In this document: piece by piece, positions 26,455 to 54,449 of the stretch
How the letters are laid out: each line of letters begins with the position of its first letter
Position numbering within the stretch: position 1 is the first letter of the stretch
From: a virus
Lineage: Duplodnaviria > Caudoviricetes
DNA: 64,000 nt
IMG/VR virus record: IMGVR_UViG_3300031088_000758
Strand: one strand, 5' to 3'
Notes under the pieces: model-generated
What the model saw: the letters and a program-made list of their open reading frames with translations, nothing else
Database searches by the model: none
What the model was told of the DNA's origin: nothing
Translations under genes and position numbers: made by a program

Positions 26455-27114
26455 TTATAAGTCATATGCTACGAGAACATTATCTTGAGTGTATCCAACT
26501 TGACCACCATCAACCATTCCCACCCAAGAAGGAAGAGATTTATAATCAAGGTTTTCTATCGGTGATACCCTTTCCATCTTAATATAGAATAAGTCATCTT
26601 TTTCAATTGCTTCTGTTTTAGCAATAGGAATATAATCTTCAGGACTTTTTATGTACCCATCACTAGTTCTCACTTCAAGAGAAGATGCTGTGACACCTTC
26701 ATCAGTAATAGGTATTTTTATTACAGAATCTTTCTCCATGAAAACTACACGAGTTCTTGCGCATACGATACTATCTGTTTTATTCATATATTCATACACA
26801 AGTTCTAAAGTCTTATCCGCATATTCCTCACCAAAAGCCGAACTTAATTCCTCATTTACTATACGATATGCTAAAGAAAAATCATCTTTATGCTTTTCAG
26901 GGACTTTGTATTTCCCAATTTTAACCAATTTTTTAGAATGACTTTTGTTTAATTTCTGTAATGAATCATGTTGTTCTTCGTATATTTCACTTGCCCATTT
27001 CCTGGCTTGGTTTAATGAACCTTCAAAATGAGGTGAATCGCTACCTAATGGACATTGGATTCGAGCTGAACAAATTTTAGCATCTCCATCATTATTTATA
27101 TGGTATTTTGTCAT
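26455..27114 (-). CDS. HCCH-tagged protein, possible minimal kinase-like fold
   Basis: N-term tag; RTRVVF..VIKIP..E..YIKMERV..D..QVG..LVAYD. Confidence 0.65.
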   Translation of the reverse strand: MTKYHINNDGDAKICSARIQCPLGSDSPHFEGSLNQARKWASEIYEEQHDSLQKLNKSHSKKLVKIGKYKVPEKHKDDFSLAYRIVNEELSSAFGEEYADKTLELVYEYMNKTDSIVCARTRVVFMEKDSVIKIPITDEGVTASSLEVRTSDGYIKSPEDYIPIAKTEAIEKDDLFYIKMERVSPIENLDYKSLPSWVGMVDGGQVGYTQDNVLVAYDL

Positions 27115-27169
27115 TTTAAAACACTCTTTGTTTGTCATCATTTATATTTTGTGCGAATACCTTGTAATT

Positions 27170-28006: not shown

Positions 28007-28191
28007 AATAAATCTCCTAAATAGAACTTCATTTTCTTGTTTTTCTAACAAAAACTTAAACAATAGAACCTACTGCCCTAAACAACATTATTTTGTCCTT
28101 GTTTACCGATTCGAGAACAATATTTGAAAATCTACTTTTAATAAATTTGATAAACTATTCCACAGAAAAAACGAAAGGGCCTGCTAAAACA

Positions 28192-29417
28192 ATGAAAGAA
28201 TATAATGATGAACTGTGGCAAAAACTTGAAAAAGAATATTCATCAAAAAACGATAATCCCTTTTCAAAAATAACTCCCGGATCTCATAAAATTTATCAAT
28301 GGATATGCGAAAACCATGAAGAAACATATAGCAGCAGTGCAGCTGCAAGGTTCAGAGGACAAAACTGTCATTACTGCTCAAACAACAAGATTTTAGTAGG
28401 ATACAATGATCTAGCCACTAAACATCCAGAATTTTTACAAGAATGGGATTATGAGAAGAATGATATAACCCCGCAACAAGTTCAACCTAAAAGCAGCAAA
28501 AAAGCATGGTGGATTTGTCAAAAAGGACACTCTTATCATCAACATATATATAAACATACAGATGGAAGAAAATGTCCGTATTGCGCTGGAAGAAAAGTGC
28601 TAGAAGGCTTTAATAACATAGAAAACGAAAACTTAATCAAAGAATGGGACAAAAAACTAAACAGTAAAACAATCAGTGAATACACAAATGGTTCAAACCA
28701 TATTGCCTACTGGATTTGTCCGTTGAACCACTCTTACAAAGCATCTATATATAATAGAACTCAAAGAAACTATGGATGTCCTTATTGCAGTGGAAGAAAA
28801 GTTCTTCAAGGTTTCAATGATCTTAAAAGCCAAGCTCCTGAAATCCTTAAAGAATGGGATTATGAAAAAACGATCATCTAGAACCTACAAAAATAACATA
28901 CAAAAGCACTAAAAAAGCTTGGTTCAAATGTTTAAGTTGCCATCATGAGTGGAGAACACCTATCTATAACCGAAGCGTTTTAAAAACAGGATGCTCTCAA
29001 TGTGCTTATAATGTAACTGTGTCAAAAGGAGAATTAGAGCTTAGAGAATTTGTTCGAAAAATAGTTAATGTAGAAATTGAGTTTAACAATCGAACTATTC
29101 TACATCCGATGGAAATAGATATCCACATACCAAGTTTAAGGATAGGAATAGAGTACAATGGCGATTATTGGCATAGCGAAGAAAAAATACAACAATTGAA
29201 GAATATGTCAGCTGTTGGCTATCATTGTAGGAAAATAATTATGGCGAAACAAAAAGATGTTCTTCTCCTTATGGTATGGGAAGATGATTGGAAGAATAAC
29301 ACCGGGAAAGTTCAAGAATATTTAAAGAAAGTTTTTCATTCATCAAATGAGGTTCTTTCTGTACATGAAATCGAAGTTCCATCTATTCTGGCAAAAACTG
29401 AAAGTGATATTATTTAA
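28192..29417 (+). pseudogene. Zn-ribbon repeat (DUF4379-like) + Vsr-like endonuclease, one-base frameshift at A-run about 28865-28870
   Basis: W.C..GH....CPYC repeats; adding one A gives YEKNDHLEPTK..WFKC..CSQC continuing in frame into SKGE..EIDIHIP..IEYNGDYWH..VWEDDW. Confidence 0.75.
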
Positions 29418-29451
29418 GAATATGAATGTAATTAAGTAGTTAGGGAACTTT

Positions 29452-29607
29452 ATGAAAATTAAGGAAATCAGAGAGATTCAGCCTGAACTGGCAAGGTGTA
29501 TCGAAGTTGACTCCCCCGACCGATTATTTGCGGTTGAAGGAACCAGAAAAGATTCTGACAAGAATAACCAAAACAGCAGTGCAGCTAGTAAAATTATCAC
29601 CCACAAT
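29452..29607 (+). mobile_element. split intein C-half #1 (class 3)
   Basis: MKIKEI..RCIEVDSPDRLFAV..ITHN followed by Ser. Confidence 0.85.
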
Positions 29608-30267
29608 TCAGTCATCCAGCGCAATATTCTGTTCGGCGCTATTCTTCGTCCTGATAGTTGGCGAGTGCTTTGCATAGATTTGAAGAAAGTGGAATTATCA
29701 GGATACAGGGCTTACTCTAATGTTGTATTAGGCGTCGCCACAACTATTGAAGATGCTTTAACTGTTCTAAGGTTTGCTCAACAGACAATGATGAAAAGAT
29801 ATGCGGAGATGGAATCCTTGGGCGTAAATAATTTCTTAGATCTTCCAGAACAGGGCCAGGCACTAATGCTAATGGTCGATGAAGCAGGTGAATTGCTTTC
29901 TCCCTCTGGTGTAAAAGCGCTGGTAAGTTCAACAATTCTTCCAACTCCTGATGGTAAAATAAAACTAGAAAATTTAAACATTGGCGACACAATTTATGAC
30001 AATTACGGACAAGAAACCGTTATCACTAATAAATACACACCAGTTGAACAATCACGTTATGAAATAAAAATAACTAGTGATAAAACAAAAATTAGCGAAA
30101 ATTTTGTTGCTGGTTCAGAACATAACTGGGTTGCTTATTTCACGTATCCTGATGGTGAAGTTGAAGGTCCAGAAATTGTTGATACACAATACTTATATGA
30201 ATTTAAAAAACACCAAGAAACATTCCCCATTGAAGAACGCACAACTGTTAAATTTAAAAAAGGCTGA
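29452..30267 (+). CDS. FtsK-family ATPase middle fragment flanked by split-intein halves (IntC-extein-IntN)
   Basis: IntC ends THN|S; extein IDLKKVEL..RY..LMVDEAGELL (Walker B); IntN begins K|ALVSSTILPTPDG. Confidence 0.88.
   Translation: MKIKEIREIQPELARCIEVDSPDRLFAVEGTRKDSDKNNQNSSAASKIITHNSVIQRNILFGAILRPDSWRVLCIDLKKVELSGYRAYSNVVLGVATTIEDALTVLRFAQQTMMKRYAEMESLGVNNFLDLPEQGQALMLMVDEAGELLSPSGVKALVSSTILPTPDGKIKLENLNIGDTIYDNYGQETVITNKYTPVEQSRYEIKITSDKTKISENFVAGSEHNWVAYFTYPDGEVEGPEIVDTQYLYEFKKHQETFPIEERTTVKFKKG
29917..30264 (+). mobile_element. split intein N-half #2 (Ala1, class 3)
   Basis: ALVSSTILPTPDG..LNIGDTIYD..G; block B AGSEHNW; ends in stop with no C-half. Confidence 0.85.
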
Positions 30268-30422
30268 TCTTTATTTGTTAATATTGTCCATGTTCAAACT
30301 TTAAAAATTGTCAAAATACTATACGGAATAGTTTAAAATCAGTTGCTATATTTAGGTTATTTAATCTGTTTTTCTTGGTAAGATACATATAAGAAAGACA
30401 ATATTGAGTGGAGCTTTTGCAA

Positions 30423-32237
30423 ATGGCGGATAAAATATGTGAATGGTGCAATGAGAAATATAATGGTGCCAAGAATAGTCGCTGGTGCAAGAAGCCTCAT
30501 TACAAAACTTGCGATAATCTTGAATGCAACAATACTTTCATCATCAAAGAAATGAAACGCCCAGCTAAAACTTGTTCAAAACCTTGCGCTGATGCTCTTA
30601 CAAAAATTAATTCAACAAAAGAAAAAGTTTGTCAATGGCATAATTGCGGAAAGACTTTCACAAGTTCTAAACATGATGCTATGTATTGTTCGAACTCTCA
30701 TTACGATACATGTGTTGTGTGCAAAAATGAGTTTGAAATACACACGGTTCATAAGCCTGCTAAAACTTGTTCAAAAAAATGCGCTTGGAATTTAGTGGAA
30801 GATGTTGAAAGTGTTGTTGAAAAGAGGAAAAAGAGCAATCAATTAAAATATGGTGTTGATAATCCTTCTCAGGCTCAAAAAATTAAAGATAAAAAAACTA
30901 AATCAGCGCAAAAAAGATATGGTGTTGATAATGTTTCACAAGCTGAAGAAGTAAAAGAAAAAAGGGTGGGAACGTTTATTGAACGTTATGGTGCTGATAA
31001 CCCTATGAGAAACAAAGATATTCAAGAAACTCTTAGACAATCCATTAATGACAAATATGGAGTAGATAATGTTTTTGCTAATGAAGAAATTAAGTTAAAA
31101 GTTAAACAAACTATTCTTGAAAAATACGGTGTGGAGAATATTTCCCAGCTTCCTTCTAATCAAGACAAAGTTAGAGCAACAACACTTATTCGATTTGGAG
31201 TGGAAAGTGTTCTACAGTTACCAGAAAATCAATTAAAAGCGAGTTTAGCGAATGGCAAAAGAATCTCTAAAATAAATAAGAAATGGAAAGAGATCTTAAC
31301 AAAAGAGGCCAATAAAGAATTTAAGATGGAAACGCATTTCGGTGATAACTACTACGCTGATTTAGGTTATGATAACGTCCTTATTGATATCAACCCAACA
31401 ATAACGCATAATTCAACCAATTCTTTTGTCCATTTCACTAGTATTTGTAAAGTTGATGGTTGTGAAAAGAAGTCTCACGCTCCAAGAGATACAGAATACC
31501 ATCAGAAACGCGCTCTGATGGCTGAAGAGAACGGATATGTTCTTCTCCAATATTTTGACTGGTATGATCCTGAGATTTTCATAAGTATTGTCAAATCAAA
31601 ACTTAAACAAGAAGATAAAAAGGTATATGCGCGGAAAACTGTTCTCAAAGAAATTAGCCAAGCTGATGCTAATCGTTTCTTCCGGGAGAATCATCTTATG
31701 GGAGCCAGCAATGGGCAAACTTTGTGTTTAGGCTTATTCTATAATGATGAGTTAATCCATGTTCAAACTTATGGTAAAGCACGTTTGAACAAGAACTATG
31801 AATGGGAAGCTATTCGTTCAGCATCTAGAATTAATCATCATATTCCAGGCGCTTTTAGTAAATGTGATAAATATTTTTTCAATAAAATGAAACCTAAGAG
31901 TGTTATTAGTTATGTTGATTTAAGTATTAGTCAGGGGCATACTGATTCTATGTTTGATGGCTGGGTTCTGAAATCATTGAACAAACCTTCCGCTACTTGG
32001 GTGAGAGTAATTGAAGATGAAGCAGCAAAGATAGAGAACCGGAAACCTTTGCCAAGATTTGTTAAAGATTCTGCTGCAAGGCGTGTTAGTGCAGACAGGT
32101 TGCTTGGATTTGAAGTTGGAGAAAAATATCCACGTTTTGATGAAAACGGTTTAAAGATAACTAATGATTACGTTTTTATGTCAGAAGGTTATATGAAAGT
32201 GTTTGATGCTGGTACAAGAACTTATGTATGGCAATGA
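30423..32237 (+). CDS. putative homing endonuclease (Cys-rich, six YGVDN-type repeats, Vsr-like, C-terminal ARK..GG.SK domain)
   Basis: CxxC clusters; KYGVDN repeats; ADLG..IDIN..H..FDW; YARKT..H..GAFSK..SYVD..DAG. Confidence 0.75.
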   Translation: MADKICEWCNEKYNGAKNSRWCKKPHYKTCDNLECNNTFIIKEMKRPAKTCSKPCADALTKINSTKEKVCQWHNCGKTFTSSKHDAMYCSNSHYDTCVVCKNEFEIHTVHKPAKTCSKKCAWNLVEDVESVVEKRKKSNQLKYGVDNPSQAQKIKDKKTKSAQKRYGVDNVSQAEEVKEKRVGTFIERYGADNPMRNKDIQETLRQSINDKYGVDNVFANEEIKLKVKQTILEKYGVENISQLPSNQDKVRATTLIRFGVESVLQLPENQLKASLANGKRISKINKKWKEILTKEANKEFKMETHFGDNYYADLGYDNVLIDINPTITHNSTNSFVHFTSICKVDGCEKKSHAPRDTEYHQKRALMAEENGYVLLQYFDWYDPEIFISIVKSKLKQEDKKVYARKTVLKEISQADANRFFRENHLMGASNGQTLCLGLFYNDELIHVQTYGKARLNKNYEWEAIRSASRINHHIPGAFSKCDKYFFNKMKPKSVISYVDLSISQGHTDSMFDGWVLKSLNKPSATWVRVIEDEAAKIENRKPLPRFVKDSAARRVSADRLLGFEVGEKYPRFDENGLKITNDYVFMSEGYMKVFDAGTRTYVWQ

Positions 32238-32370
32238 ATAAAAATATATGACGTTTTAAAATTTTGGTTTCTAAAACTTCAAAATTATTTATTATTCTAA
32301 GATAGAAAACTCTTTGTTAATATTGTTTATTCATAGTAAACGATTAAAATGTCTATTAGGTAGGTTCAAT

Positions 32371-33222
32371 ATGTTTTATCATGTAAGTAATGATGGTGTC
32401 CCAAGAGTTTGTCATGCAACATCACCTTCTAAGTGCCCTATATCTAAAAGCGGGGATTTAAAAGAACACTTTATGGATACTGTAGAAGCAGCAAAAGCCT
32501 ATGAAAACCATATGGAATCAAAAAATTCGAAAAACATTCTACAAAAGACCAAATCTTCCAAAAATGATTCAACTGGTTCTTTTTCCTATGTTGATTCTGA
32601 TACAGTTAATCTTTTTAAAAACAAAATTCAAGAACTTTACCCATTGTTTAAAAATTATTCTCATGATTACACTAACTATAATCCTGATGAACGACCTGGT
32701 GAACGTGAATTCATAGAAAACTATAACCCTAAGAAATACACGGATAAAGATGTCTCATATACCGCTGATAATATTATTTTGCGTGTAGATCCAGAAGATA
32801 ATGTTTTAAAAGTTCTTATGATAAAAAGAGGTGGACATCCTTATAAGAATCATTGGGCACATCCTGGTGGTTTTATTGATGATATAAAAGATGGTACAGG
32901 TTCTATCATGCGGTCTGAGACAAGGTTTGAAGCGGCTTCACGCGAACTTAAAGAAGAAACTGGAATGATTGTTGAACCACATCAAATGGACGCTGTAAAC
33001 GTCTATAAACACCATGGAAGAGACCCCCGTATGGATGTTCACATGAATACGCATGTCGTACTTATGGATGAAGAACGTGAGTTTGAAGCAGCTGATGATG
33101 CTACTGATGCAAAGTATATTCCTGTTTCAGATATCTATTCTGATAAAATTGATGTAGCTTTTGACCATAAACTAAGCATTAAAGATGCGTTAAACTTTGT
33201 CATCAAATCAAACAAAAATTAA
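32371..33222 (+). CDS. HCCH-tagged Nudix hydrolase (ADP-ribose pyrophosphatase-like)
   Basis: MFYHVSNDG..C.A..CP..HF..EA tag; WAHPGGF..AASRELKEETG, RDPR, AFDH. Confidence 0.88.
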   Translation: MFYHVSNDGVPRVCHATSPSKCPISKSGDLKEHFMDTVEAAKAYENHMESKNSKNILQKTKSSKNDSTGSFSYVDSDTVNLFKNKIQELYPLFKNYSHDYTNYNPDERPGEREFIENYNPKKYTDKDVSYTADNIILRVDPEDNVLKVLMIKRGGHPYKNHWAHPGGFIDDIKDGTGSIMRSETRFEAASRELKEETGMIVEPHQMDAVNVYKHHGRDPRMDVHMNTHVVLMDEEREFEAADDATDAKYIPVSDIYSDKIDVAFDHKLSIKDALNFVIKSNKN

Positions 33223-33278
33223 ACAATGTGAATATAGTAATAATATATCGAACATGACAGTAATGTATAAGATATATC

Positions 33279-33307
33279 TTGACAAATATAGAATCTCCTT
33301 GTAGAAT
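33279..33307 (+). promoter_or_regulatory. SigA-like promoter
   Basis: TTGACA-N17-TAGAAT. Confidence 0.6.
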
Positions 33308-33350
33308 TAGTTCGAAAATATAATTCTAAAATTCTACAAGGAGATTCTTC

Positions 33351-33893
33351 ATGGTCCGTCGAAGCGTAGAGGACATTAAAAACGATTACAACCTGCATAC
33401 TGCTGTTTATCATCAGAGTAAACAAGCTTACAAAGAAGCAGAAATTAAGCATGAACAGAAACAGAGCAAATTTTACACAGCATATTTTATTTTGTTTGCC
33501 ATGAGTTCAGTTGCGGTTTGGTTTAGCACTCACAGTATTGAAACCTTAATCGGTTATATTTTTATGGGATTTTTCGTAAGTGTTACCTTAACCTCACATA
33601 TCTTTGTTTCAATCTTTACCGATAGAAGCACACCGCAAGCTGCAGATTATAATTGTTCAAGGACAGAGCGCGAAAAATACGTCAATGACATTAAACACGA
33701 GATTGTCGAATCTATGATTCAAGGCCATATTATGAAAATTGATTTTAAAAAGTCTAGTTATTCTACGTGGAACATGATTGTTACACTAGATGAAGATAAT
33801 AAGTCTCATGAGTACTATGCTGAATTTTTCTTTGATGATGAAAAATCAACTATTGATGTTAATGTTCATGAATTTGTCGCTAAAAACAACTGA
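33351..33893 (+). CDS. membrane protein (2 TM)
   Basis: two hydrophobic segments; RBS AGGAG. Confidence 0.75.
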   Translation: MVRRSVEDIKNDYNLHTAVYHQSKQAYKEAEIKHEQKQSKFYTAYFILFAMSSVAVWFSTHSIETLIGYIFMGFFVSVTLTSHIFVSIFTDRSTPQAADYNCSRTEREKYVNDIKHEIVESMIQGHIMKIDFKKSSYSTWNMIVTLDEDNKSHEYYAEFFFDDEKSTIDVNVHEFVAKNN

Positions 33894-33984
33894 CTTCAAA
33901 TAAGATTAATAAAATCTTCTGACTACTAATCATAGTGTTGTATTTAAGTATTGCTATCTAACACATTTATTCGAAAGGCATAAT

Positions 33985-34734
33985 ATGTCCATCTATAGTC
34001 TCTATTCTGCTTTTAATAAAAAAGAATTTTCTAAAATTGACTCTAAACAAATTTTTCAAAAACTACAATACACTTCGTTATCTGGAGAAGTGAGAGATTT
34101 AAATTTTGACAAAGATGAATTCAACAAAGATAGAGTAGAATTTGAAAATCTATATGGGTATTCTAGCAATGTTAAGTATTATTTTTATCAAGATTCAGAA
34201 GATTCTACATATGCTTATTGTATAGTTAATATAGGTTCCCGAAAGTATCTTTTTAGAGTAGATGGTAAAAAGTTTGTAAGAAAAAGTATGTTCTCCAATG
34301 AAAAGAAAATCAGATGGGGAGCTTTATACAGATTATTGTTGAAAACTAAAAAATACTCATCAGATGACATGCAAACAAAAAATATCGCTTTAACAACGCT
34401 TCATGATTATAATATGTACGGAATCAATTGTTTTCAAAAACCAAAACACAATAATTCTTTGAGTGAAAATTATTCGAATATGCTAATTCGTGTTTTTGAA
34501 GCGAAATTCAGTATTGATGAAATCGGATTAAATAAAATAGAAAAAGTTTTTCATGCAACTAAACCTCATGATGTTTTATACAATGATTTATTAATTAAGT
34601 TAGAAAATTCAGCAGATTTGTATAATCTTAAAAAAACAGAATATTATACAGCTATCAAAAACTTAAAAGACACAATTAATCACTATGATAGAAAAGAATT
34701 TGAAAGAAAACAGTTAGAAGTTCTTTCTTCTTGA
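33985..34734 (+). CDS. hypothetical protein
   Basis: 249-aa ORF with RBS. Confidence 0.7.
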   Translation: MSIYSLYSAFNKKEFSKIDSKQIFQKLQYTSLSGEVRDLNFDKDEFNKDRVEFENLYGYSSNVKYYFYQDSEDSTYAYCIVNIGSRKYLFRVDGKKFVRKSMFSNEKKIRWGALYRLLLKTKKYSSDDMQTKNIALTTLHDYNMYGINCFQKPKHNNSLSENYSNMLIRVFEAKFSIDEIGLNKIEKVFHATKPHDVLYNDLLIKLENSADLYNLKKTEYYTAIKNLKDTINHYDRKEFERKQLEVLSS

Positions 34735-34823
34735 AATTTAGTTTGAAAATTTTACTCTTATGTTGAATTTTTCTCATACTTAGAGAATGCATCTCATCAG
34801 AAACCTTAATAAATACTTTAACT

Positions 34824-36590
34824 TTAAGGTTTCTGATGAGATGTTTTTTGTTTGAGTTCAGCTAATTCTCTTCTGCACTTAAAACATGAATACAGATCTT
34901 TACCTTTTCTTGGAACTGGTTTGATTTCAGTGTTGCATATTACACAATTCCAATCATGAGGATTAGAACAGAATAGTTGGTTCTTGTTCTTAGCTTCGAA
35001 TTCTTTGTGGCATAGTTGACAAACATTTATTAAGGCTTTCTTCTCAAAGAGAGGTTTTCTTGATTCCTCTTTAATCTCTTTTTGACAGATGCTGCAATCC
35101 TTATTGGTTTTACCTTTGCTTTCATCATGATATCTGTGTGCTGCTTTGTCAGCAGTACATTTGCTACAGCTTTTACCTTTGTGCTTTGTTTCACCGTGAA
35201 TTAAACATTCTCTAATGTTTATAGAACCTTCGGCGCGACATTTTGAACATTTTCCATTCATATGTTTTGTTGTGCCATGAATCAAACATTCTTGTATCTC
35301 TACAATGTTTTCACGACACTTTAAACATTCGCTGTTGACAAAATATGTTTCGCCATGGACTTTACAGTTGTCTAATGTATATTTTGTGTTTCGGCATTTG
35401 TAGCATTTGTTTCCGACATGTTTAGTTAAACCATGATTTGAGCAATTCTTCATGGTGATATTTTTTTCATTCAAGCATTTTCGACATTGATTACCTATGT
35501 GTTTCGTGTTACCGTGAATTTCGCATTTTTTGGTATTGATAGATTTTTCGGCAGTGCATCTACAACAAGTTTTTCCAGCATGTTTAGTTAAACCATGGAT
35601 TGAGCAGTTTTTGTCCTCAAAACGCAAAAGTTGTCCTCGATTAAAACCTGTGTAATGACCACCTGTAATACTATTTAAACAATTTGGATCAGTGTGCCAA
35701 AGATCTTGAATTAACTCTTTTTCATGACGATATGCTTGTGATCTAGTGTCAAATATACTTAGGACTTCTTTTTTAAGAGTTTTTCTGTATTTCTTTTTCC
35801 AGTTGCCAAATTTATTGTTTTCAGATGCTTTGCCTCCGCTTCCATAATAGCCATCATTTAGGCAGTCTTCTATAGTAATTTCGCTATAAGGTTTCTTAAC
35901 ACTTGAAACTCCATAGTAGTACTTTTCAGATTTTGATGAAGTTATTTTATAAGTGTAAAAGCTAATGTTTGGATTAAACCAAGCATAGACTTTATCACCA
36001 GTTGTTTCTTCTATGCTCCATCCTAACTCTTCAACGAATAGTTCTATATTTGTTTTTCTTTTTCCGTTCTTATGAAAAACTTCACCTAATGTAGTTCCGA
36101 GAATATTATCAGGACCTAAACTTACAACATAAGGAATTGAAAGTTTCTCTTTGCCTCTGGCAGTAGAAATATTCTTATTTGGAGCAATTAAGTAACTTTT
36201 TGTTTTGTCTTGAGAAATTAGCTTAAAACCAGCATGTTCATAAACTTTTGTATTTTCGCCTGTTGTGTCTTGATAAGTAAAGATGTCATAAGGCGAAAAT
36301 TCTTGTTTGTAATAGTTGACTAGTTTACTGGCACCACCTGTAACCCTGACATTTTGCTTAAAACACAGTCTTAAAAGCTCAGTAGAGTATTCAGCTTTTT
36401 TCGCGGAAGTTCTTGGGGAGCAAAATTGTGCTACAGCAATAAGTTCTTTTTTGTATAAAAGACCAATACTGAATACTCTTGTATTAGGTGCGGCAGAACC
36501 GCTCGAATGATAAGCCTCAACAAAGCTTTGTGCTGTTTCTGAATCAATAACTTTCACAATTGTTTTTCTTGCGTATACCCTTCGCTGCAT
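34824..36590 (-). CDS. putative homing endonuclease: ARK..GG.SK domain + GIY-YIG-like + six CxxHG..CxxC repeats
   Basis: YARKT..ELLRLCF..GGASKL; YTYKIT..YYYG..YYGSG..E; repeated C..HG.TKH...C..C. Confidence 0.75.
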   Translation of the reverse strand: MQRRVYARKTIVKVIDSETAQSFVEAYHSSGSAAPNTRVFSIGLLYKKELIAVAQFCSPRTSAKKAEYSTELLRLCFKQNVRVTGGASKLVNYYKQEFSPYDIFTYQDTTGENTKVYEHAGFKLISQDKTKSYLIAPNKNISTARGKEKLSIPYVVSLGPDNILGTTLGEVFHKNGKRKTNIELFVEELGWSIEETTGDKVYAWFNPNISFYTYKITSSKSEKYYYGVSSVKKPYSEITIEDCLNDGYYGSGGKASENNKFGNWKKKYRKTLKKEVLSIFDTRSQAYRHEKELIQDLWHTDPNCLNSITGGHYTGFNRGQLLRFEDKNCSIHGLTKHAGKTCCRCTAEKSINTKKCEIHGNTKHIGNQCRKCLNEKNITMKNCSNHGLTKHVGNKCYKCRNTKYTLDNCKVHGETYFVNSECLKCRENIVEIQECLIHGTTKHMNGKCSKCRAEGSINIRECLIHGETKHKGKSCSKCTADKAAHRYHDESKGKTNKDCSICQKEIKEESRKPLFEKKALINVCQLCHKEFEAKNKNQLFCSNPHDWNCVICNTEIKPVPRKGKDLYSCFKCRRELAELKQKTSHQKP

Positions 36591-36734
36591 AGTTGCTCCT
36601 GTTCTTCTTTATTGATAATTGTATCTTACCAAAAAATCTATTACAATGCTATGTTTTTAACATAATTGAGCAGTGCTTTAAAGAGCTTAGGTTGATATTT
36701 ATGTAAATATATTTTTAGAAAGTTAGGAAGCTTT

Positions 36735-36908
36735 ATGGATAAAAGTAATGAACTTAGCGAAAACATAAATGTCAACGCTGAAGAAGAGTGGTTTACATTA
36801 GAGAATATTGCGATCTCTGACAATGATGAAACTTTGTATTGTATAAGCGTTGATTCACCTGATAAACAATTCTTGATTGGTGAAGATATCGCTGTTCCCA
36901 CACATAAT
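36735..36908 (+). mobile_element. split intein C-half #2 (class 3)
   Basis: block F Cys, block G THN, +1 Ser. Confidence 0.85.
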
Positions 36909-37625
36909 AGCGAAGAAGGTAAGGCCGAGGATGAGCTAAAAGGCGAAGCCGCAATGATCATTGGAAGTATAGCAAGGTTAGGTCGAGCCGCAGGTGTACA
37001 CCTCGTTATTGCTACGCAGAGACCTGACGCTACTATTATTAGTGGTGAGACGAAGGCTAACCTTGGTGTAAGAATTAACGCTGGTAGAACTGATTCAAAT
37101 GCTTCTTCAATGATTTTGGGAACTAGTGATGGAACTCGTGTTAAGGCTAACCCTCGTGGTAGGCTTTATTTGAGGATATATGGAAGCGGAAACCATGGTC
37201 AAGGATTTTTTGCTGAACAATCTTGGATAGACAATTACCTTGCTTCTCAAGGCAAAAATCCTGATGGTTCTCCAATTTCTGAGAAGCGTTCTAAACTTGC
37301 TAAGGTTGCTGATATGAGTCAATTTGAGGATGCTGACCTTGATGAGCGTGAGGGTGTTGACAATTCAACAGTTATTGAACAAATAAGAGCTGAAGAATCG
37401 GGTGAAGAATTTGACAATCTTATGACAGATGATGATGATGCGGAATCTGATAGTGATGATTGGGGATTTGATACGGAGGACGAAGCAATTGATGAACCTG
37501 AAGAAGATAAGCTTGGTCGTCCTGATTTAGCTAGTGTTGGTGGAACAGACATGGATAAGTTCAAAAGACCAGAAGAAAGCTGGGACTCAGAATTAGAAGA
37601 TCTTTTAGCAGAGAATAATGAGTGA
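36735..37625 (+). CDS. FtsK-family ATPase C-terminal fragment with N-terminal split-intein C-half
   Basis: YCISVDSPDKQFLIG..PTHN|S then IARLGRAAGVHLVIATQRPD..KANLGVRI..RGR; acidic tail. Confidence 0.88.
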   Translation: MDKSNELSENINVNAEEEWFTLENIAISDNDETLYCISVDSPDKQFLIGEDIAVPTHNSEEGKAEDELKGEAAMIIGSIARLGRAAGVHLVIATQRPDATIISGETKANLGVRINAGRTDSNASSMILGTSDGTRVKANPRGRLYLRIYGSGNHGQGFFAEQSWIDNYLASQGKNPDGSPISEKRSKLAKVADMSQFEDADLDEREGVDNSTVIEQIRAEESGEEFDNLMTDDDDAESDSDDWGFDTEDEAIDEPEEDKLGRPDLASVGGTDMDKFKRPEESWDSELEDLLAENNE

Positions 37626-37754
37626 ATGCGATAGTTCATAATTGTGAATAAGTTGAATTGTTTTTAATGTTTTTATGAATAGTCAAAAATTGACTTAGTT
37701 TTGTGTTATTTTGTTAAGATAGTAATACGAAAGTAATATGTTTGAAGGTGGATT

Positions 37755-38975
37755 GTGGGTAAGATCAATAGTTCTATTTCTTATTTAGTTTCTGTTCAGC
37801 GTCCTGATCTTAGGGAGTTCTGGTCTAAGAAAAATATTTTAAGTTTTGATGAAGTTTCTGTAGGTAAAGCAGTTGATGTTTGGTGGACATGCAGTAAAGG
37901 TCATGAGTTTGAGCATAGTTTGAAAAATATGGCTGGAGTAAGAAAATACTTTAGATGTTCTGAATGCTACTTTTTGGAATCTGTTGCTTATTTGCATCCT
38001 GAAATTGTTCCTATGTGGGATGTTGAAAGAAATGGATTTTCAGCTGAAAAAAGCTTATTGAAAAACAACTCATCAGTTTGGTGGAAATGCGATAAAAGCC
38101 ATTCTTCTAAGAGGAAAGTTCAAAGTTATCTTAATGATCCTAATTGTTATGAATGTGTTGAAAAGCCATTTAGCAAAGTTTTTGAAAGTTATCCTGAACT
38201 AAAAAAAATTTGGGATTTTGATAAGAACCCTGATCCTAATAAGGTAAGTTCCTGGGATCTTAGTTTGTTTTATTGGAAATGCTTGAACGGACATAGTTTC
38301 ACAAGGACAATTTATCGTCAAGCAAGATTAGCTGAAAACAATTGTTTAATTTGTTATCGTGGTGGAACAATTTTTGATAAAACAAAAGAATTGTTGCCAT
38401 ACAAAGTTGATGTTGAGAAGACCCAAGAATTACTTTATCCAGATTTTGATGTATATGTTTACACACAGGGATTTAAGAAACCTGTTTATTGGTTATGTAA
38501 TTTTGGGCATTCTTTTAAAAGAGGATTTTCTGATCAATTGAAGAATAAAAGGAATTGCCGTGAATGCCATAATAATGTTTCTTCTTTAGAGCTAAAGGTT
38601 CGTACAGAAGTTAGTCGTTTATTTTCTGGTTTGAAGGTAGAGTACAATTACACTGGCTTAGATCAGGTTTATGAAGTTGATTTATTTTTTCCTGAACTTA
38701 ATAAGGCAATTGACGTAAACGGCGAATATTGGCATAGTGATGTTATTGCGCAGAAGAATGGATGGAATAGTTCTTATTCTAAACATTCGAGCAAGATTCA
38801 AAAATGTTTGGATAATGGTGTTCAGCTTGTTTATGTCTGGGAAGATGATTGGAACGAAGAATTAGATAAGTTATTGACTGCTTTGAAGGATTTTGTTGTG
38901 AATGACTCAATTGACAAGTTATTGTTGAGGTTGTATAGTCATTATGATAGTAAACAAGCTCTTTTTAAAAAATAA
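37755..38975 (+). CDS. Zn-ribbon repeat + Vsr-like endonuclease
   Basis: WW.C..GH..C..C repeats; S.LE..EVDLFFP..IDVNGEYWH..VWEDDW. Confidence 0.8.
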   Translation: MGKINSSISYLVSVQRPDLREFWSKKNILSFDEVSVGKAVDVWWTCSKGHEFEHSLKNMAGVRKYFRCSECYFLESVAYLHPEIVPMWDVERNGFSAEKSLLKNNSSVWWKCDKSHSSKRKVQSYLNDPNCYECVEKPFSKVFESYPELKKIWDFDKNPDPNKVSSWDLSLFYWKCLNGHSFTRTIYRQARLAENNCLICYRGGTIFDKTKELLPYKVDVEKTQELLYPDFDVYVYTQGFKKPVYWLCNFGHSFKRGFSDQLKNKRNCRECHNNVSSLELKVRTEVSRLFSGLKVEYNYTGLDQVYEVDLFFPELNKAIDVNGEYWHSDVIAQKNGWNSSYSKHSSKIQKCLDNGVQLVYVWEDDWNEELDKLLTALKDFVVNDSIDKLLLRLYSHYDSKQALFKK

Positions 38976-39041: not shown

Positions 39042-40427
39042 GTGAGTATTGAAAAATTAGATTATGAGACGAATGATGAAGTTGTTAAATCAAGTTCTCG
39101 TAATTCTCTTATGAAAAAATATTCTGATCAGTGGATTAATCAACTATATGAGAAAAATTTTAGCGAATATATTGATGTCAAAAAATGGGCTGTTAGGTTT
39201 TATAGAGAGAATGGTGTTAAACCTAGTGTTGCAGCAGCTGCTAGTTATTTTGGGGTTCCTTCTCCTACCATTAGCGTTCTTAAAAGTCGTGAAAATTTGA
39301 ATAACTATTTTAATGTAGTAAGCTCTGACAAGGAAACTTCGCTTGAAGATTTTCTCAGTTCTAATGTCCCGTCTGTAAAATGTTTGCGTAATGCGACTGA
39401 TGTAGTTGAGGGGCATACTTTGGATTTTTATTTTCCTGATTTTAATTTTGCTGTGGAGATTGCTTCTACTTTGACGCATCATTCTAATGATTTTAAGAAT
39501 GATTTGGTGAAGGATGTGTATGATGAGATGAAGCCTCCTGGCTATAGTTTGAATAAGGCTCTTGCTTCTGAAAAGGCTGGGGTAGAATTGTTTACTATTT
39601 TTGATTGGATGCCTTGGGCGAAAAGTTTAAATATGATTAAACATAAATTATCAGGATCTAATCAAACTGTTTATGGTCGTAAAGCCAGCGTGCATTTTGT
39701 AGATAAAACTATTCATAGGAACAAGAAAGTTGCTCGTAAGGTAAAAGATTTTATTGATGAAAATCATGTACTTGGATTCAATGGTCGCGGTTCTCAGTTT
39801 TATGTGTACCTTGAAAACAATGATGAAATTATTGCAGCTTCTGCTTGGGGTAAGCCACGTAATCTGAGTATTAAAAACCTTGGAAAAGAACGCGGCACTG
39901 ATATCATTGAATTAACACGAATGTGTTTTAAGCCTGGTATCTCTATTCCTGGTGGAGCATCTAAAATGATGAAAGCTTTCATGCGAAATTATCCTGAGAA
40001 GTTAAACAGCTTGATTACGTTTAGTGATTATGATCTTGGCTTCGGGAATGTGTATGAAACTTTAGGTTTTGAAATGATTGAGAAGCCTTCGGCTCAGAAA
40101 AACTATGTGCATCCTATTCTAGTAAAGGGTGATGGACATAATGAATACAATTTCCGTATTAAGTCAAGTAGTCTTCATTTTGCTGGTAGTGATCGTTTGT
40201 TGCAAAATATTCCTGGCTATATTCCAGTGGGCATGGAATGTCAACATGAAGAAACGTATCATCCTAATGGAAGCTGTTTGCCTACGAATCCTCAAATTGT
40301 TGAATCTTATGGGTTCTTACCTGTGTATGATTGCGGATACAAAAAGTGGCGTAGATTTGTTTCTGAAGATGAGCAAAAAAACAAAAATAAGACTAATGAG
40401 GAAGTTAAAGAAAATACTTTATTTTAA
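39042..40427 (+). CDS. putative endonuclease with C-terminal ARK..GG.SK domain
   Basis: LDFYFP..AVEI..H..FDW; ELTRMCF..GGASKM..TFSD..YDCG. Confidence 0.75.
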   Translation: MSIEKLDYETNDEVVKSSSRNSLMKKYSDQWINQLYEKNFSEYIDVKKWAVRFYRENGVKPSVAAAASYFGVPSPTISVLKSRENLNNYFNVVSSDKETSLEDFLSSNVPSVKCLRNATDVVEGHTLDFYFPDFNFAVEIASTLTHHSNDFKNDLVKDVYDEMKPPGYSLNKALASEKAGVELFTIFDWMPWAKSLNMIKHKLSGSNQTVYGRKASVHFVDKTIHRNKKVARKVKDFIDENHVLGFNGRGSQFYVYLENNDEIIAASAWGKPRNLSIKNLGKERGTDIIELTRMCFKPGISIPGGASKMMKAFMRNYPEKLNSLITFSDYDLGFGNVYETLGFEMIEKPSAQKNYVHPILVKGDGHNEYNFRIKSSSLHFAGSDRLLQNIPGYIPVGMECQHEETYHPNGSCLPTNPQIVESYGFLPVYDCGYKKWRRFVSEDEQKNKNKTNEEVKENTLF

Positions 40428-48882: not shown

Positions 48883-51800
48883 TCATTCATCATCTAAACT
48901 GTTCGGGTTGAAGACTCCGAAATCATAAGCACCATAACCAACATATTTTTCAATTGCTTGCTCAACTTTTTGGTTTTTGTCGGTACTGTATCCTGAGTTT
49001 TCATATACGAGATTTTCTATTGCATCAATAATATCTTCTTTTGAAGGTTTAATACTATATGCTCTTTCAATTTGAGGAGGCCATACATGTTCAACACCTT
49101 CACCATCAAGTTTAGTCATGTCATACGCTGTTTCATAGAGGATCTTATCATCTACAAATAATTCATCTTCAGAGTATGATGCTGTGTAAACAGGATAATC
49201 ACCAGGAAGTTTTTTCTCTAGATTGTAAGGTAAAGCTTTTTTCAATTTAGCCATTTTTTCTTGGTTATTATCAGTATTTTTAAATCTTATCCTTACAGGC
49301 ATTGTTCCATTATCCGCTAGTTGAAGAGGTTTCATATAGTTAACTCTTGCCCTATATGGTGAATCTTCTTTTCCAGGACGATATGTGATATCCATTATAT
49401 ATAGATTATATTTTTCAATATCTTTAACAATTTTTACATCCGGGTTAGTAGCCTTGTCTAATACTTCAGATTTTATATCAGATTTGCCTTTTTCATAAGC
49501 TACACGAATTTGATTCTGAGCATTGTACTTATCAATTCCATCAACAATTTGTTTGCTTACATCTACATTCATGAATCCACTTCCATCATCTAAGTCAAGA
49601 AGAATAGATTTAGAGCCGCGTCTACTTCGCTTGATTTCCATACCAAGGACAGAAGCAATAATTGTAGTTCGTATAGGCTTAGGTGATTTCGAAGCCAATA
49701 ATTTAGCTATGTTTTGTGAATAATCCTTGGACATAGCATTGCCGATTTTATCAGTAGGGTGTGCTGTAAGATACAAACCTACCATTTCTGCTTCACTCTT
49801 CAATCGTGTGAGGAATGGATAATCTTCACCTGTTAATTCTATTTCTAGAGAATCGTCTTCCATCTCGAACATGTCAAACAATGATTCACCTTTTTTAGCT
49901 TTTGTTTTACTAGTATCCATAAGATGGACAATATTTTCAAAAGTCTTCTTTCGGCTTACACCAAGACTGTCAAAAGCCCCTGAAAGAGCAAGGTTTTCAT
50001 AAACCGTTCTCTTGTCAACACCTAAAGGAAAACATCTATCAATAAGATCTTTTACAGAAGTGTATAGTCCATTTTTTTCGCGCTCTTGGACAATTAGTTC
50101 AGCCATTTTAGCAGAAACAGATTTCACCCCAGAGAGTCCAAAAATAATGTCATAAGAATCTTCGTCTTTTTTCGCATAGTTAGGTGCCACTCTGACTTCT
50201 GAAAGATTTATGTCAGTAGAACCAACTTTTATCCCCATACGATTAGCATCACGTAAATAAAGCAGAGTCTTATCTTTATTGTCTACGTGTTGAGCAATTA
50301 AAGCTGCCATGAATTCCACAGGATAGTGAACTTTTAGATATGCGCTTTGATAACTGTTCATAGCGTAAGCAACAGCATGAGAATTATGAGAAACAATTCC
50401 ATTAGCAATAAAGTTTGCTGGACCAGTGGTGTCCATTTCAATATCATATGTCATTTCACGAAGAATTGAGCCATTGTTAAGAATTTTTGGTTCAATAATT
50501 TCAACAATTTCGTCTCCGTTCTCAATATGGTGAGACATCAGAGCATTATCTATTTCATCACCAAAGTTGCTAGGAGTCAGATAAACAAAAGGAATCTCAT
50601 TGCCATATTTTTCTTTAACAAAATATTCTCTTCCTCTTCTTAAGCCATCCATTTCAAAATAAAGACCATTAGCGTAAAAATCGGTAATTTTTGCTGTGCC
50701 ATGAACAGAAGTGAAAACTTTATGCATTTCAAAATCTATTCCTCTGCTTAGTAAATATTCAGCAGCAGCTGCTTCAGCAATAGAATCAGCTACTCTTCCA
50801 TCAGAAAGAACAGTGGGAATTCCATAACCTTTTCTTGATGCAGCAGATTCTTCAAACCATTTTTGCGAATTTTCAAGAATTTGTTTTTGCCATTCAAGAT
50901 CATTCTTTCTTAAATGACTTAATCTTTCTTGCATTGCTTTGAGGGGCTTCAAAGAACGTTGTGGATTGCTCAATTGAATTTGCTTTTGATGCGCAGATCT
51001 ATCAGCAAAAGAGAGTGTTTCTTGATAAGCAATCATCCGTTCTCTTGCTTTTTCACGCTGTTCATCAGTTTTGTTAACTTTTGACATGGTTTTTTGTCGA
51101 GTAAGTCTTGTTTCATCAGAAATTCGTTTTGTCCATTCGCCATCAATAATAAGTTCTTTTCCAACTGTCAATATACCATCATCAATAGAACCATAACCAT
51201 CAGTAGTAAGAAGCCTATGTTCTTTTGTCAATCGAATGATGCGCCCACTCTTGGTTTTAACCTTGTATAGTGGTTTAACACCTGTCTGAACAATATTGCT
51301 TATCTTGTGTGGTCGAATTTCGCCATCTTCAAACATAGAGAGGATTTCTATATCTTTCTCTCCATTTGCAAATCTTTCGTAAAGGTTCTCTATAGAGATT
51401 TTTCCTTGACCATTAGGCAATGAAACAAGAGTGCGTCCATAGAGACATTTGTTGAATCCATACTTGGCGAAGGGCTCCAAAGTTTCCCATAACACAGTGA
51501 TAGCCTCTTCTGAGAAGCCATTTTTCATAGCACCTTCATAAAACTTAGGACGCATAGCATCCATAACTTTTTTCTTCTTTTTACCCATGGCACGACGCAA
51601 ATCATCACCCTCTTGAAGCGTCATCCCGGCTATTTTGTTAGATATCTGCTGAACCTGTTCCTGATAAATTACTAAACCTTGAGTTTTTTCAAGAATCTCT
51701 TCCATAACAGTTCCCTTGAATTCAGGGTGGATATAGTCAATTTCTTCACGGCCATTTTTACGATCAGCATACTTTGTGTGGGATTGTAATCCCATAGGGC

Positions 51801-52599
51801 CAGGGCGAGCAACAGAAGTAATTGCGGGAAGGTCAGCAAATTCCGTAGGCTTAGTAAGATGCAGCAATTGCTGAACCATTTCAGAACCAAACTGAAAAAT
51901 ACCAATAGTGTTTCCCTGTTGGAAAAGTTTATAAACTTCGGGATCATCCATTGGGCCATGAATCAAATCAATCATATTAGGAGGTGTTTTACCCATTTTA
52001 GCAATATTTTGAACACTATTTTGGACTAAATCAACAGTATCTAAACCTAAGAAGTCCATTTTTAACAGACCTAAAGCTTCACATTCAGGATATGTCCATT
52101 GCGTAATGGTTCTTTCATCAGATTGACGAACATGAAGAGGAATAGCATCGGATAAGGGAACATTACTAATTATAATTCCGCAGGCGTGCACCCCCGTTGA
52201 TTTGTTTCGCCCTTCAATTGCTCTTGCACCTTCAATAATTTTTTCCCATTCTTTGCCCGAAACAGCTTCACGGAAATCAGCACCTTCGGCATAACGATCA
52301 CTATCAGGGTTGTATATATCTTCTAAGGTGGCACTGACACCTTCAATCATAGGTGGATAAAGAGAAGTGATTTTGTTTGCTTGAGCAAAATTAACTTCAT
52401 AAATTGTGCACATTTGCTTAAAGGCAGCCTTGCCAGCTAAGGTTCCAAATGTAACGATGTTAGCTACGTTATCTCTACCATAAACATCACTTACATGCTC
52501 AATAGCTCTTTCCCTGAATTCAGTATGAAAATCGCTATCTACATCAGGCGGGCTACCACTTGAAATTACTTCAATTTTTGCAATTTTTTTACTACTCAT
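48883..52599 (-). CDS. dnaE: DNA polymerase III alpha, C-terminal half (contains cis intein)
   Basis: PDVDSDF, GVHACG, LLKMDFLGL, GIFQF, YQEQV, YGFNK|intein|SHAVAY, YLTAHP. Confidence 0.93.
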   Translation of the reverse strand: MSSKKIAKIEVISSGSPPDVDSDFHTEFRERAIEHVSDVYGRDNVANIVTFGTLAGKAAFKQMCTIYEVNFAQANKITSLYPPMIEGVSATLEDIYNPDSDRYAEGADFREAVSGKEWEKIIEGARAIEGRNKSTGVHACGIIISNVPLSDAIPLHVRQSDERTITQWTYPECEALGLLKMDFLGLDTVDLVQNSVQNIAKMGKTPPNMIDLIHGPMDDPEVYKLFQQGNTIGIFQFGSEMVQQLLHLTKPTEFADLPAITSVARPGPMGLQSHTKYADRKNGREEIDYIHPEFKGTVMEEILEKTQGLVIYQEQVQQISNKIAGMTLQEGDDLRRAMGKKKKKVMDAMRPKFYEGAMKNGFSEEAITVLWETLEPFAKYGFNKCLYGRTLVSLPNGQGKISIENLYERFANGEKDIEILSMFEDGEIRPHKISNIVQTGVKPLYKVKTKSGRIIRLTKEHRLLTTDGYGSIDDGILTVGKELIIDGEWTKRISDETRLTRQKTMSKVNKTDEQREKARERMIAYQETLSFADRSAHQKQIQLSNPQRSLKPLKAMQERLSHLRKNDLEWQKQILENSQKWFEESAASRKGYGIPTVLSDGRVADSIAEAAAAEYLLSRGIDFEMHKVFTSVHGTAKITDFYANGLYFEMDGLRRGREYFVKEKYGNEIPFVYLTPSNFGDEIDNALMSHHIENGDEIVEIIEPKILNNGSILREMTYDIEMDTTGPANFIANGIVSHNSHAVAYAMNSYQSAYLKVHYPVEFMAALIAQHVDNKDKTLLYLRDANRMGIKVGSTDINLSEVRVAPNYAKKDEDSYDIIFGLSGVKSVSAKMAELIVQEREKNGLYTSVKDLIDRCFPLGVDKRTVYENLALSGAFDSLGVSRKKTFENIVHLMDTSKTKAKKGESLFDMFEMEDDSLEIELTGEDYPFLTRLKSEAEMVGLYLTAHPTDKIGNAMSKDYSQNIAKLLASKSPKPIRTTIIASVLGMEIKRSRRGSKSILLDLDDGSGFMNVDVSKQIVDGIDKYNAQNQIRVAYEKGKSDIKSEVLDKATNPDVKIVKDIEKYNLYIMDITYRPGKEDSPYRARVNYMKPLQLADNGTMPVRIRFKNTDNNQEKMAKLKKALPYNLEKKLPGDYPVYTASYSEDELFVDDKILYETAYDMTKLDGEGVEHVWPPQIERAYSIKPSKEDIIDAIENLVYENSGYSTDKNQKVEQAIEKYVGYGAYDFGVFNPNSLDDE
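50383..51447 (-). mobile_element. cis intein (355 aa, class 1) in DnaE with internal non-LAGLIDADG endonuclease-like domain
   Basis: K|CLYGRTLV, block B LTKEHRLLT, TYDIEM..NFIANGIVSHN|S. Confidence 0.92.
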
Positions 52600-52652
52600 T
52601 TTTCTCCTACCACCATTAATAAATCATATACACCACTACTTTTCCTATGATT

Positions 52653-54317: not shown

Positions 54318-54391
54318 ACTTAATACTTCTCCTTCAAGTCATTGATTAAACTATATCTTTGTTGTAGCCTTTTTAAGAGATTTAATAAAAA

Positions 54392-54444
54392 CCCGGCAAA
54401 ACCAAGACAGTAAAACAACTGTGGTAGATCTTGGTTTTGCCGGG
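54392..54444 (-). terminator. terminator after dnaX
   Basis: 16-bp perfect IR followed by T-run on minus strand. Confidence 0.7.
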
Positions 54445-54449
54445 AAGTT

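Follow-up and report, generated by a model that had tools for sequence, protein, structure and literature searches.

A candidate natural three-piece class-3 split intein in an FtsK-like ATPase distributed over four genes

Introduction

Inteins of class 3 are defined by the absence of Cys at position N1:1, by a Cys at position C2:4 (or F:4), and by a Trp-Cys-Thr (WCT) triplet whose Trp stands at N3:12 and whose Thr stands at C1:5 (PMC7891396, PMC2807308). In canonical split inteins the N-terminal fragment (IntN) has 100-120 amino acids (aa) and the C-terminal fragment (IntC) 35-50 aa, whereas natural splits of the S1 type combine an IntN of 15-16 aa with a long IntC (PMC13014065). Proof that inteins in three or more fragments exist in nature is still lacking, according to Weis et al. 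(2023, bioRxiv 10.1101/2023.01.30.526203). In this paper we analyse 64,000 nt of the IMG/VR record IMGVR_UViG_3300031088_000758 (hereafter the window, to which the coordinates of genes p1 and p2 refer), in which p1 and p2 encode parts of an FtsK-like ATPase bordered by intein fragments. We conclude that the intein at the start of p1 (intein 1) is probably a natural three-piece class-3 split intein, and that the ATPase would be produced from four genes by three splicing events. In the literature that we searched, we found neither a natural three-piece intein nor an intein-split FtsK.

AceL NrdHF (Hoffmann et al. 2020, PMC7891396) was the earliest natural split intein of class 3 to be reported; its publication contradicts a preliminary description of the present locus, according to which the characterised natural split inteins were class 1 and two-piece. 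Like the inteins considered here, AceL NrdHF was found in a metagenome, is split, lacks Cys at position 1, has the Cys at C2:4 (F:4), and interrupts a fractured gene accompanied by a free-standing homing endonuclease. It is divided at the canonical split site into 98 + 48 aa, compared with 116 + 58 aa for the intein that joins p1 to p2 (intein 2). It has an MCT triplet and is without two conserved His residues, whereas intein 2 has the full W-C-T together with His-Asn. Moreover, AceL NrdHF consists of two pieces where intein 1 appears to have three, and the inteins described here are known from sequence alone. A split class-3 intein by itself thus appears to be rare but not new, while three-piece inteins appear so far to have been made only in the laboratory.

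A second point of comparison is provided by fractured genes (Dassa, London, Stoddard, Schueler-Furman and Pietrokovski 2009, PMC2677866), in which, as here, the host gene is interrupted within an intein, next to free-standing homing endonuclease genes. Those cases comprise two pieces around one endonuclease gene at one locus, whereas here four genes and three inteins contribute to one ATPase; the eight host enzymes named in PMC2677866 do not include an FtsK-like protein.

Among the natural splits at the S1 site summarised in PMC13014065, VidaL (16-aa IntN) and PolB16 OarG (15-aa IntN) have an IntN of about the same length as the intein tail of the N-terminal ATPase fragment described below, and, like that tail, it stops after the first strands. 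Their remainder is one IntC of about 100-130 aa, whereas here it appears to be broken again at the canonical site, into a middle piece (IntM) and a 52-aa IntC. Synthetic three-piece inteins (Sun, Yang and Liu 2004, cited in PMC13014065; Weis et al. 2023, 10.1101/2023.01.30.526203) consist of N, M and C fragments, with an extein-free M and with all three fragments required for trans-splicing. This layout is our working model for intein 1. The synthetic inteins were engineered from class-1 inteins, whereas intein 1 would be natural, bears the signatures of class 3, and is retained across a large clade. Finally, the class-3 cis inteins of DnaB (MchDnaB-1, 6RIX/6RIY; Msm DnaBi1, 6BS8; MP-Be DnaB, PMC2807308) give the best matches, in sequence and in structure, to IntM and to the IntN of intein 2 (IntN2) after gp41-1. 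They share a WCT-type signature and a P-loop ATPase host with the inteins studied here, but they are contiguous and occupy another host protein.

Results

Two exteins of one ATPase in p1 and p2

The anatomy proposed in the preliminary description, IntC-extein-IntN for p1 and IntC-extein for p2, is confirmed for both open reading frames (ORFs). Gene p1 (29452-30267, 271 aa) consists of an IntC of 52 aa, an FtsK extein of 103 aa and an IntN of 116 aa; gene p2 (36735-37625, 296 aa) consists of an IntC of 58 aa and the C-terminal FtsK extein. Their parts are:

29452-29607, + strand: IntC of intein 1 (IntC1), p1 residues 1-52, with block F Cys16 and block G Thr50-His51-Asn52; canonical C-fragment size
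29608-29916, + strand: middle extein of the FtsK-like ATPase (p1 residues 53-155); it opens with the Walker A Ser (+1) and ends shortly after Walker B (DEAGE)
29917-30267, + strand: IntN of intein 2 (IntN2), p1 residues 156-271 and stop codon, with Ala1, block A Thr and block B His224-x-Trp226
36735-36908, + strand: IntC of intein 2 (IntC2), p2 residues 1-58, with Cys36 in block F and Thr56-His57-Asn58 in block G
36909-37625, + strand: C-terminal extein of the FtsK-like ATPase, p2 residues 59-296 and stop codon, with Ser+1 and the ATQRPD motif

The Pfam family PF01580 (FtsK_SpoIIIE) matches p1 residues 53-152 along profile positions 53-154 with 31.8 bits (cut-off 24), and p2 residues 72-97 along positions 194-219, although p2 alone reaches only 17.3 bits against the same cut-off. 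The family is carried as well by relatives in which the two exteins are fused. Since the p1 extein occupies positions 617-717 of the profile PHROG 1358 (FtsK/SpoIIIE-like) and the p2 extein positions 722-823, the two exteins are collinear. The middle extein also matches the FtsK structure 2IUS (E 9.6e-9). The NCBIfam models for FtsK, EccC and TraB match the ATPase only far below their cut-offs.

The K|S joint that had been suggested between the two exteins, SPSGVK|SEEGK, is found as a contiguous sequence in relatives without intein 2 (P0102 and P0107-P0120). At the same site, the relative P0111 contains a contiguous (cis) version of intein 2. The IntC of intein 2 occurs in that cis form and in a further relative (L005:11920-12768), and the IntN2 region of p1 matches residues 4-70 of the gp41-1 intein (E 1e-6). 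A separately made Logan assembly (L001) reproduces positions 19452-40267 of the window with 100% identity, so the division into p1 and p2 is not an artefact of assembly. A scan of positions 28800-38000 for promoters and terminators gave nothing above the shuffled expectation.

The order IntC-extein-IntN is also the order of engineered cyclisation, and IntC1 and IntC2 are paralogous (tblastn E 0.006-0.011). One might therefore suppose that p1 is a cassette for self-cyclisation or polymerisation, in which IntN2 pairs with the IntC1 of the same or of another copy (SICLOPPS-like). We regard this as extremely improbable. Both ends of p1 have dedicated partners (the N-fragment and IntM at one end, p2 at the other), the three exteins are collinear with FtsK, and many relatives, which lack intein 2, have this extein joined directly to the C-terminal one, which marks it as an internal part of one ATPase.

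The N-terminal fragment and the missing part of intein 1

Neither a gene with Walker A and an IntN nor a middle intein piece was found in the window by regular expressions or tblastn, and the end of the window had no exact match among viral contigs. It had been predicted that a third gene, ending in GK followed by an IntN, lies beyond the window, and a search for such a gene succeeded. An N-fragment on the contig of a relative (P0122, L002), when used as a query, yields about 190 N-fragments, including P0223 (486 aa, L004:10001-11461), which is located on a 727,572-bp contig that carries p1, p2 and IntM too. As predicted for a junction at GK|S, the extein of P0223 stops at the GK of Walker A; its IntN, however, is only 15 aa long and begins with Ser rather than with the expected Ala.

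P0223 opens with transmembrane segments and a conserved N-domain ending in ..TTSPM. Its residues 321-460 (L004:10961-11380) form a cis mini-intein of 140 aa, from Cys321 to Asn460, with Cys461 as the +1 residue (..TSN|Cys+1) and a faint match to Pfam Intein_splicing. We read this mini-intein as class 1 because its block B is T-x-x-H. Its insertion site precedes the Walker A Lys by 10 residues, and its occurrence is sporadic (about 13 of 93 aligned N-fragments). The mini-intein is followed by 11 residues, CFVGGGTGGGK, and then by the 15-aa intein tail (residues 472-486), which starts with Ser472 and resembles block A. All 120 listed relatives of the N-fragment terminate 12-60 aa past Walker A, and their tails contain a conserved strand of ten residues, [SA]-L-x-x-D-T-x-V-x-V. 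Directly after P0223 comes a homing-endonuclease gene, P0338 (phrog_3339).

The invariant sequence GGGTGGGK of Walker A closes the N-extein, while Ser53 opens the extein of p1, DEAGE lies within p1, and ATQRPD lies within p2. As the reading frames are laid out, the Walker A GxxGxGK[ST] and the Walker B of the ATPase would be complete only once the pieces are joined. On the other side of the break, every relative of the mid-fragment opens with an IntC1 of canonical size and pattern (35-52 aa). Because a short N-tail and a short IntC1 occur together, some 90 residues of intein 1, including block B, are missing from these two fragments.

A free-standing middle piece

A hidden Markov model (HMM) of the paralogous IntN2 segments matches a gene at L004:18311-18958 (215 aa, P0335), which we call IntM, and a syntenic gene at L007:13186-13812 (208 aa). 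On the 727,572-bp contig, IntM stands 6.85 kb downstream of the N-fragment, a few genes on, with genes on both strands intervening, and it has no extein. With its positions 5-62, the IntM profile covers residues 17-72 of gp41-1 (E 2.5e-8) and residues 15-67 of the class-3 MchDnaB-1. IntM thus starts at residue 15-17 of the solved inteins. By alignment and by model, it spans the gap in intein 1, from the end of the 15-aa tail to the canonical split site.

The AlphaFold model of IntM has a predicted local distance difference test score (pLDDT) of 90.9; in it, residues 14-59 form strands, residues 61-185 a helical insert, and residues 187-190 the final strand. With VIA-align, residues 31-59 and 187-207 of the model superpose on residues 55-99 of Npu DnaE and 45-87 of MchDnaB-1 (Z 4.6, root-mean-square deviation 1.9 A, 42-44 residues).

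In the relative L002, IntM is fused to IntC1-extein-IntN2 in a single gene (P0066). The short-tailed N-fragment P0122 lies upstream of P0066, and a homing endonuclease gene lies exactly between the two; this relative thus has a two-piece S1 split, like VidaL and PolB16 OarG. We assign IntM to intein 1 because of the natural fusion in P0066. A HMMER search of the full database with the middle region of P0066 returned 93 representative clusters, nearly all of them free-standing and of about 190-260 aa, and a second search for IntM returned 57 clusters at 90% identity. IntN2 was also considered as the supplier of the missing middle of intein 1; this candidate was rejected, since relatives without intein 2 still keep IntM.

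After block B, IntM contains the confidently modelled insert of about 125 aa, with conserved Arg125, Gly131 and Gln167. It is conceivable, therefore, that IntM is a DNA-binding or regulatory protein derived from an intein fragment and unneeded for splicing, and that intein 1 is dead or works as two pieces of 15 + 52 aa. Weak MarR-like Foldseek rows for the insert (E 0.07), which are not significant, speak for such a role, as does the lack of any Pfam match in IntM; the endonuclease P0338 has no Pfam match either. A Foldseek comparison of the IntM model with the PDB found nothing at E <= 0.001. A wide VIA-align search with IntM gave partial intein rows (Z about 4.6) and, for the insert, non-specific helical rows. 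An intein of 67 residues would miss block B and half of the Hedgehog/intein (HINT) fold, however, and block B (Gly-Asn-His-Leu-Trp-Tyr) is the best-conserved stretch of IntM. Given also the natural fusion of IntM to IntC1, we judge an independent role of IntM in place of splicing to be very unlikely.

Directly upstream of IntM there is a conserved gene of 281 aa without a Pfam match (L004:17398-18243, L007:12344-13189). In L007 its end overlaps the start of IntM by 4 nt, which suggests co-translation.

Co-occurrence of the pieces in relatives

Contigs of nine sizes are common to the tables of N-fragments and of IntM (727572, 72828, 37481, 42266, 20757, 697643, 105554, 344889 and 43606 bp). On a JGI contig of 436,870 bp, the N-fragment, IntM, the mid-fragment and the C-fragment share one strand and fall within about 20 kb. 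Four of five complete IMG/VR relatives (309-437 kb) have IntM downstream of the N-fragment, 0.9-9 kb from it and in the same orientation. In those four records the mid-fragment is 70-110 kb away; they lack intein 2, and their mid and C exteins form one fused sequence. Because IntM is kept where intein 2 is absent, the three-piece form of intein 1 is, on present gene content, the fixed state of the clade, and intein 2 and the cis intein are sporadic.

A distant relative (L010/L046, IMGVR_UViG_3300044557_000292; 39% identity) apparently has its split intein a few residues earlier, with an IntC that ends in THN before TGGGKS. An IntM-like gene was not detected in it, and a block-B-like EHLW occurs in an open frame just upstream of the IntC. 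It may represent a differently split form.

Homing endonuclease genes are abundant throughout the genome, and the fragmentation might accordingly be thought an artefact of mis-assembly, of frameshifts, of an alternative genetic code, or of joining at the RNA level, for example by group I introns. Independent assemblies are identical, however, and more than 100 relatives have the same ORF ends. Other genes, one of them on the opposite strand, stand between the N-fragment and IntM. All of the pieces are read under table 11, each with its own start and a Shine-Dalgarno-like site, and a search at Rfam gathering thresholds gave no group I intron for either the window or L004. We consider an artefact the least probable of all the explanations discussed in this paper, and scarcely credible.

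Outside this clade, no match was found by tblastn of an N-fragment (P0136) against phages, by megablast of positions 29000-38000 of the window against cultured and deposited phages, or by a scan of the GTDB species genomes with the N-fragment alignment. A search of sequencing runs listed no RNA run with the sequence; the best DNA match among the runs is a phyllosphere metagenome, from which the sequence may derive.

Catalytic residues of inteins 1 and 2

Residues of intein 1 were counted over 93 N-fragments, 96 IntM and 80 mid-fragments, and those of the IntN of intein 2 over 80 mid-fragments; the block F position was assigned by eye against the canonical IntC pattern. Position 1 of intein 1 is Ser in 62 of the N-fragments (Ser472 in P0223) and Ala in the other 31, and is never Cys. 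Because Ser and Ala interchange there, residue 1 would not be an essential nucleophile. The block A Thr is present in 88 of 93 tails. In block B of IntM, His is found in 96 of 96 sequences and Trp in 82 (Trp56 in the 727,572-bp contig). The F:4 Cys (Cys16 of p1), His51-Asn52 and the +1 residue Ser53 are each found in 80 of 80 mid-fragments, whereas G:5 is Ser in 42 and Thr in 38 (Thr50 in p1). Lys155 of p1 is invariant in the 80 aligned relatives.

In intein 2, Ala156 (Ala1) is conserved in 78 of 80 sequences, and Thr161 of block A and both His224 and Trp226 in all 80. In p2, Cys36, Thr56, His57, Asn58 and Ser59 are present, and a counterpart of Cys36 occurs in L005 and P0111 as well. The WCT signature previously reported for both split inteins is thus present in their residues, and by the published definition inteins 1 and 2 are both class 3, as far as residue patterns define a class.

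It could be that the machinery of intein 1 is a relic, which no longer splices. In that case the N-strand, IntM and IntC1 would hold the ATPase together non-covalently, and the P-loop would work across a broken backbone. The WCT triplet of intein 1, which is not strict, speaks for such a relic. Conversely, the F:4 Cys, the His-Asn pair, the Ser+1 and the block B His are invariant in relatives down to about 40-50% identity. In addition, the break separates the Walker A Lys from its Ser, and the 15 + 52 additional residues attached at this point are hard to reconcile with nucleotide binding unless they are removed. We consider the relic rather improbable, though it is the main rival to a splicing intein 1.

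A model of the three-piece complex

We modelled residues 457-486 of the N-fragment (the N-tail), IntM, and residues 1-75 of p1 as a complex of three chains. Its interaction prediction score from aligned errors (ipSAE) is 0.71, against 0.00 for the best of 3 controls, a result that may reflect likeness to solved split-intein complexes. The ipSAE mark is reached by 58 of 80 solved complexes and by 2 of 110 mismatched pairs. Contacts agree between runs to at least 88%, and the pLDDT of the partner is at least 80. In the model, residues 1-57 and 191-205 of IntM are in contact with residues 469-486 of the N-tail and with residues 1-33 of IntC1. The model supports, but does not demonstrate, binding of IntM to the N-tail and IntC1.

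Several points weigh against a three-piece, splicing intein 1. The complex score was obtained with self-made alignments and with three chains, and so differs from the calibration of the tool. The block B Trp of IntM is replaced in 14 of 96 sequences (by Phe in 9). Because this Trp varies and G:5 is Ser in about half of the sequences, intein 1 does not adhere strictly to the WCT triplet. The helical insert of about 125 aa could give IntM another function. No homologue that is unsplit, or free of intein 1, with a native GK-S junction was found in the clade, in which the 'longer' length class is unsearched. Finally, both splicing and its class-3 route are inferred from the sequences.

Proposed assembly of the ATPase

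The anatomy of the genes, the collinearity of the exteins, the conservation of the intein residues and the co-occurrence of the pieces are observed, and the complex model is supportive. On this basis, we hold it probable that intein 1 is a natural three-piece class-3 split intein and that the membrane-anchored FtsK-like ATPase is assembled from four genes by three splicing events. The preliminary description envisaged three extein genes and two trans-splicing events. The three extein genes and the two split inteins hold; in addition, a fourth gene, IntM, would be needed, and a cis class-1 intein would have to be spliced.

Four pieces would be involved. The first is P0223, with its transmembrane segments, N-domain, cis class-1 mini-intein, the sequence CFVGGGTGGGK and the 15-aa N-strand of the intein. 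The second is the extein-free IntM, which would supply the stretch of the intein that starts near residue 15 and ends at the canonical split point. The third is p1, which combines IntC1, the 103-aa extein and IntN2, and the fourth is p2, which combines IntC2 and the C-terminal extein.

The cis mini-intein would be removed by class-1 splicing (step 1). The 15-aa strand, IntM and IntC1 would assemble non-covalently into one HINT fold (step 2), within which the bond between Lys471 and Ser472 would be attacked by the block F Cys16 of p1, according to the class-3 route (step 3). The acyl group would then pass to Ser53 and Asn52 would cyclise, so that the GK-S of Walker A is regained (step 4). IntN2 and IntC2 would act likewise through Cys36 of p2, and would join ..GVK to SEEGK.. 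after Walker B (step 5).

Homing endonucleases and other fractured genes

Genes of the 'homing endonuclease' family phrog_3339 adjoin all three of the extein-bearing genes. Those around p1 and p2 are:

28093-29417, + strand: two ORFs of a probably degenerate homing-endonuclease gene, immediately before p1; DUF4379 zinc fingers in 28093-28881 (Pfam E 1.4e-45), nuclease part in 29019-29417 (phrog_3339 E 3.9e-24)
30408-32237, + strand: homing-endonuclease-family gene, directly downstream of p1; zinc ribbons, DUF7487 repeats (Pfam E 2.2e-43) and Mom-like C-terminus; phrog_3339 E 2e-56
34824-36590, - strand: second homing-endonuclease-family gene, in the 6.5-kb gap between p1 and p2; Mom-like N-terminus (Pfam Mom E 4.7e-6) and zinc ribbons; phrog_3339 E 5e-25, phrog_314 E 3.5e-10
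37755-38975, + strand: homing-endonuclease gene that combines DUF4379 with a nuclease part, immediately after p2; Pfam DUF4379 E 4.3e-24; phrog_559, phrog_3339

A Vsr-like nuclease in 37755-38975 is not supported above threshold (Pfam Vsr E 0.044, below the cut-off), and a test against the PDB was weak too. A remnant of 43 aa from the C-terminus of the 30408-32237 gene is found at the same place in L005. Large genes with zinc ribbons, DUF7487 repeats and a Mom-like domain (phrog_3339) recur in the window (30408-32237, 34824-36590 on the - strand, and 39042-40427) and in L003 (4928-6823 and 8117-10111). Such genes repeatedly flank the pieces of the ATPase, and they may be the mobile agents behind the break in intein 2.

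The gene for DnaE (the alpha subunit of DNA polymerase III) is fractured too (window 48883-57094, - strand). Its N-half, 55607-57094, contains PHP and positions 5-98 of the NTPase profile; its C-half, 48883-52599, contains NTPase positions 100-260, finger and HHH, with a cis intein at residues 392-739 (Pfam Intein_splicing). The halves are separated by two genes, one clamp-loader-like (54450-55550) and one for a DUF4379 endonuclease (52653-54317). The 436-kb relative apparently has a further fractured gene (L007:15536-19235), in which a PFL-like, probably NrdD-type glycyl-radical enzyme precedes a separate Gly_radical ORF of 81 aa and a DUF4379 endonuclease gene.

Many otherwise unrelated proteins open with a His/Cys-rich N-terminal module of about 45 aa (..H.N..TG....C.A...C.FG...H......A...YE), which is found at:

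window 26455-27141, - strand
window 32314-33222, + strand
L004:12976-14277 and L004:14323-15642
L005:11074-11658, - strand
L007:11129-12253

The window also contains a full-length gene for transfer-messenger RNA (tmRNA; 61024-61378, - strand; Rfam RF00023, 122.5 bits).

Nature of the element

The five relatives G001-G005 (L008, L009, L010, L013 and L020) are filed in IMG/VR as complete viruses of 309-437 kb with terminal repeats. Because neither Pfam Phage_capsid (HK97) nor Terminase_6N has a match in these five genomes, we do not confidently call the element a phage. All five contain a VirB4-like AAA_10 ATPase, and a TrbL-like gene is located near the N-fragment. On account of these genes, and of the unmatched capsid and terminase families, the clade may consist of conjugative elements rather than phages, and the ATPase may be a coupling or translocase protein of the conjugation type.

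Discussion

AceL NrdHF is the only characterised natural split class-3 intein, and the present locus adds two further candidates, with near-canonical signatures. With its more than 90 related clusters, the locus offers a directly testable natural case of an intein in more than two pieces. An N fragment of 10-15 aa without an N-terminal nucleophile is, moreover, attractive for semisynthetic ligation with short peptides.

The occurrence of three inteins within about 115 residues of one P-loop core indicates the extent to which the traffic of homing endonucleases can shatter a gene that is apparently essential and seemingly still under selection. The extein-free natural M fragment raises the possibility that the maturation of a protein is regulated in trans. 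A more specific proposal, which we put forward as speculative and on balance unlikely, is that IntM is a trans-acting licensing factor, such that maturation of the ATPase, which would require the N-fragment, IntM, the mid-fragment and the C-fragment together, constitutes a natural multi-input AND gate at the protein level, by which the activation of a DNA translocase is timed or localised. If this proposal were true, then the helical insert of IntM could add another input, through the binding of DNA or of a partner.

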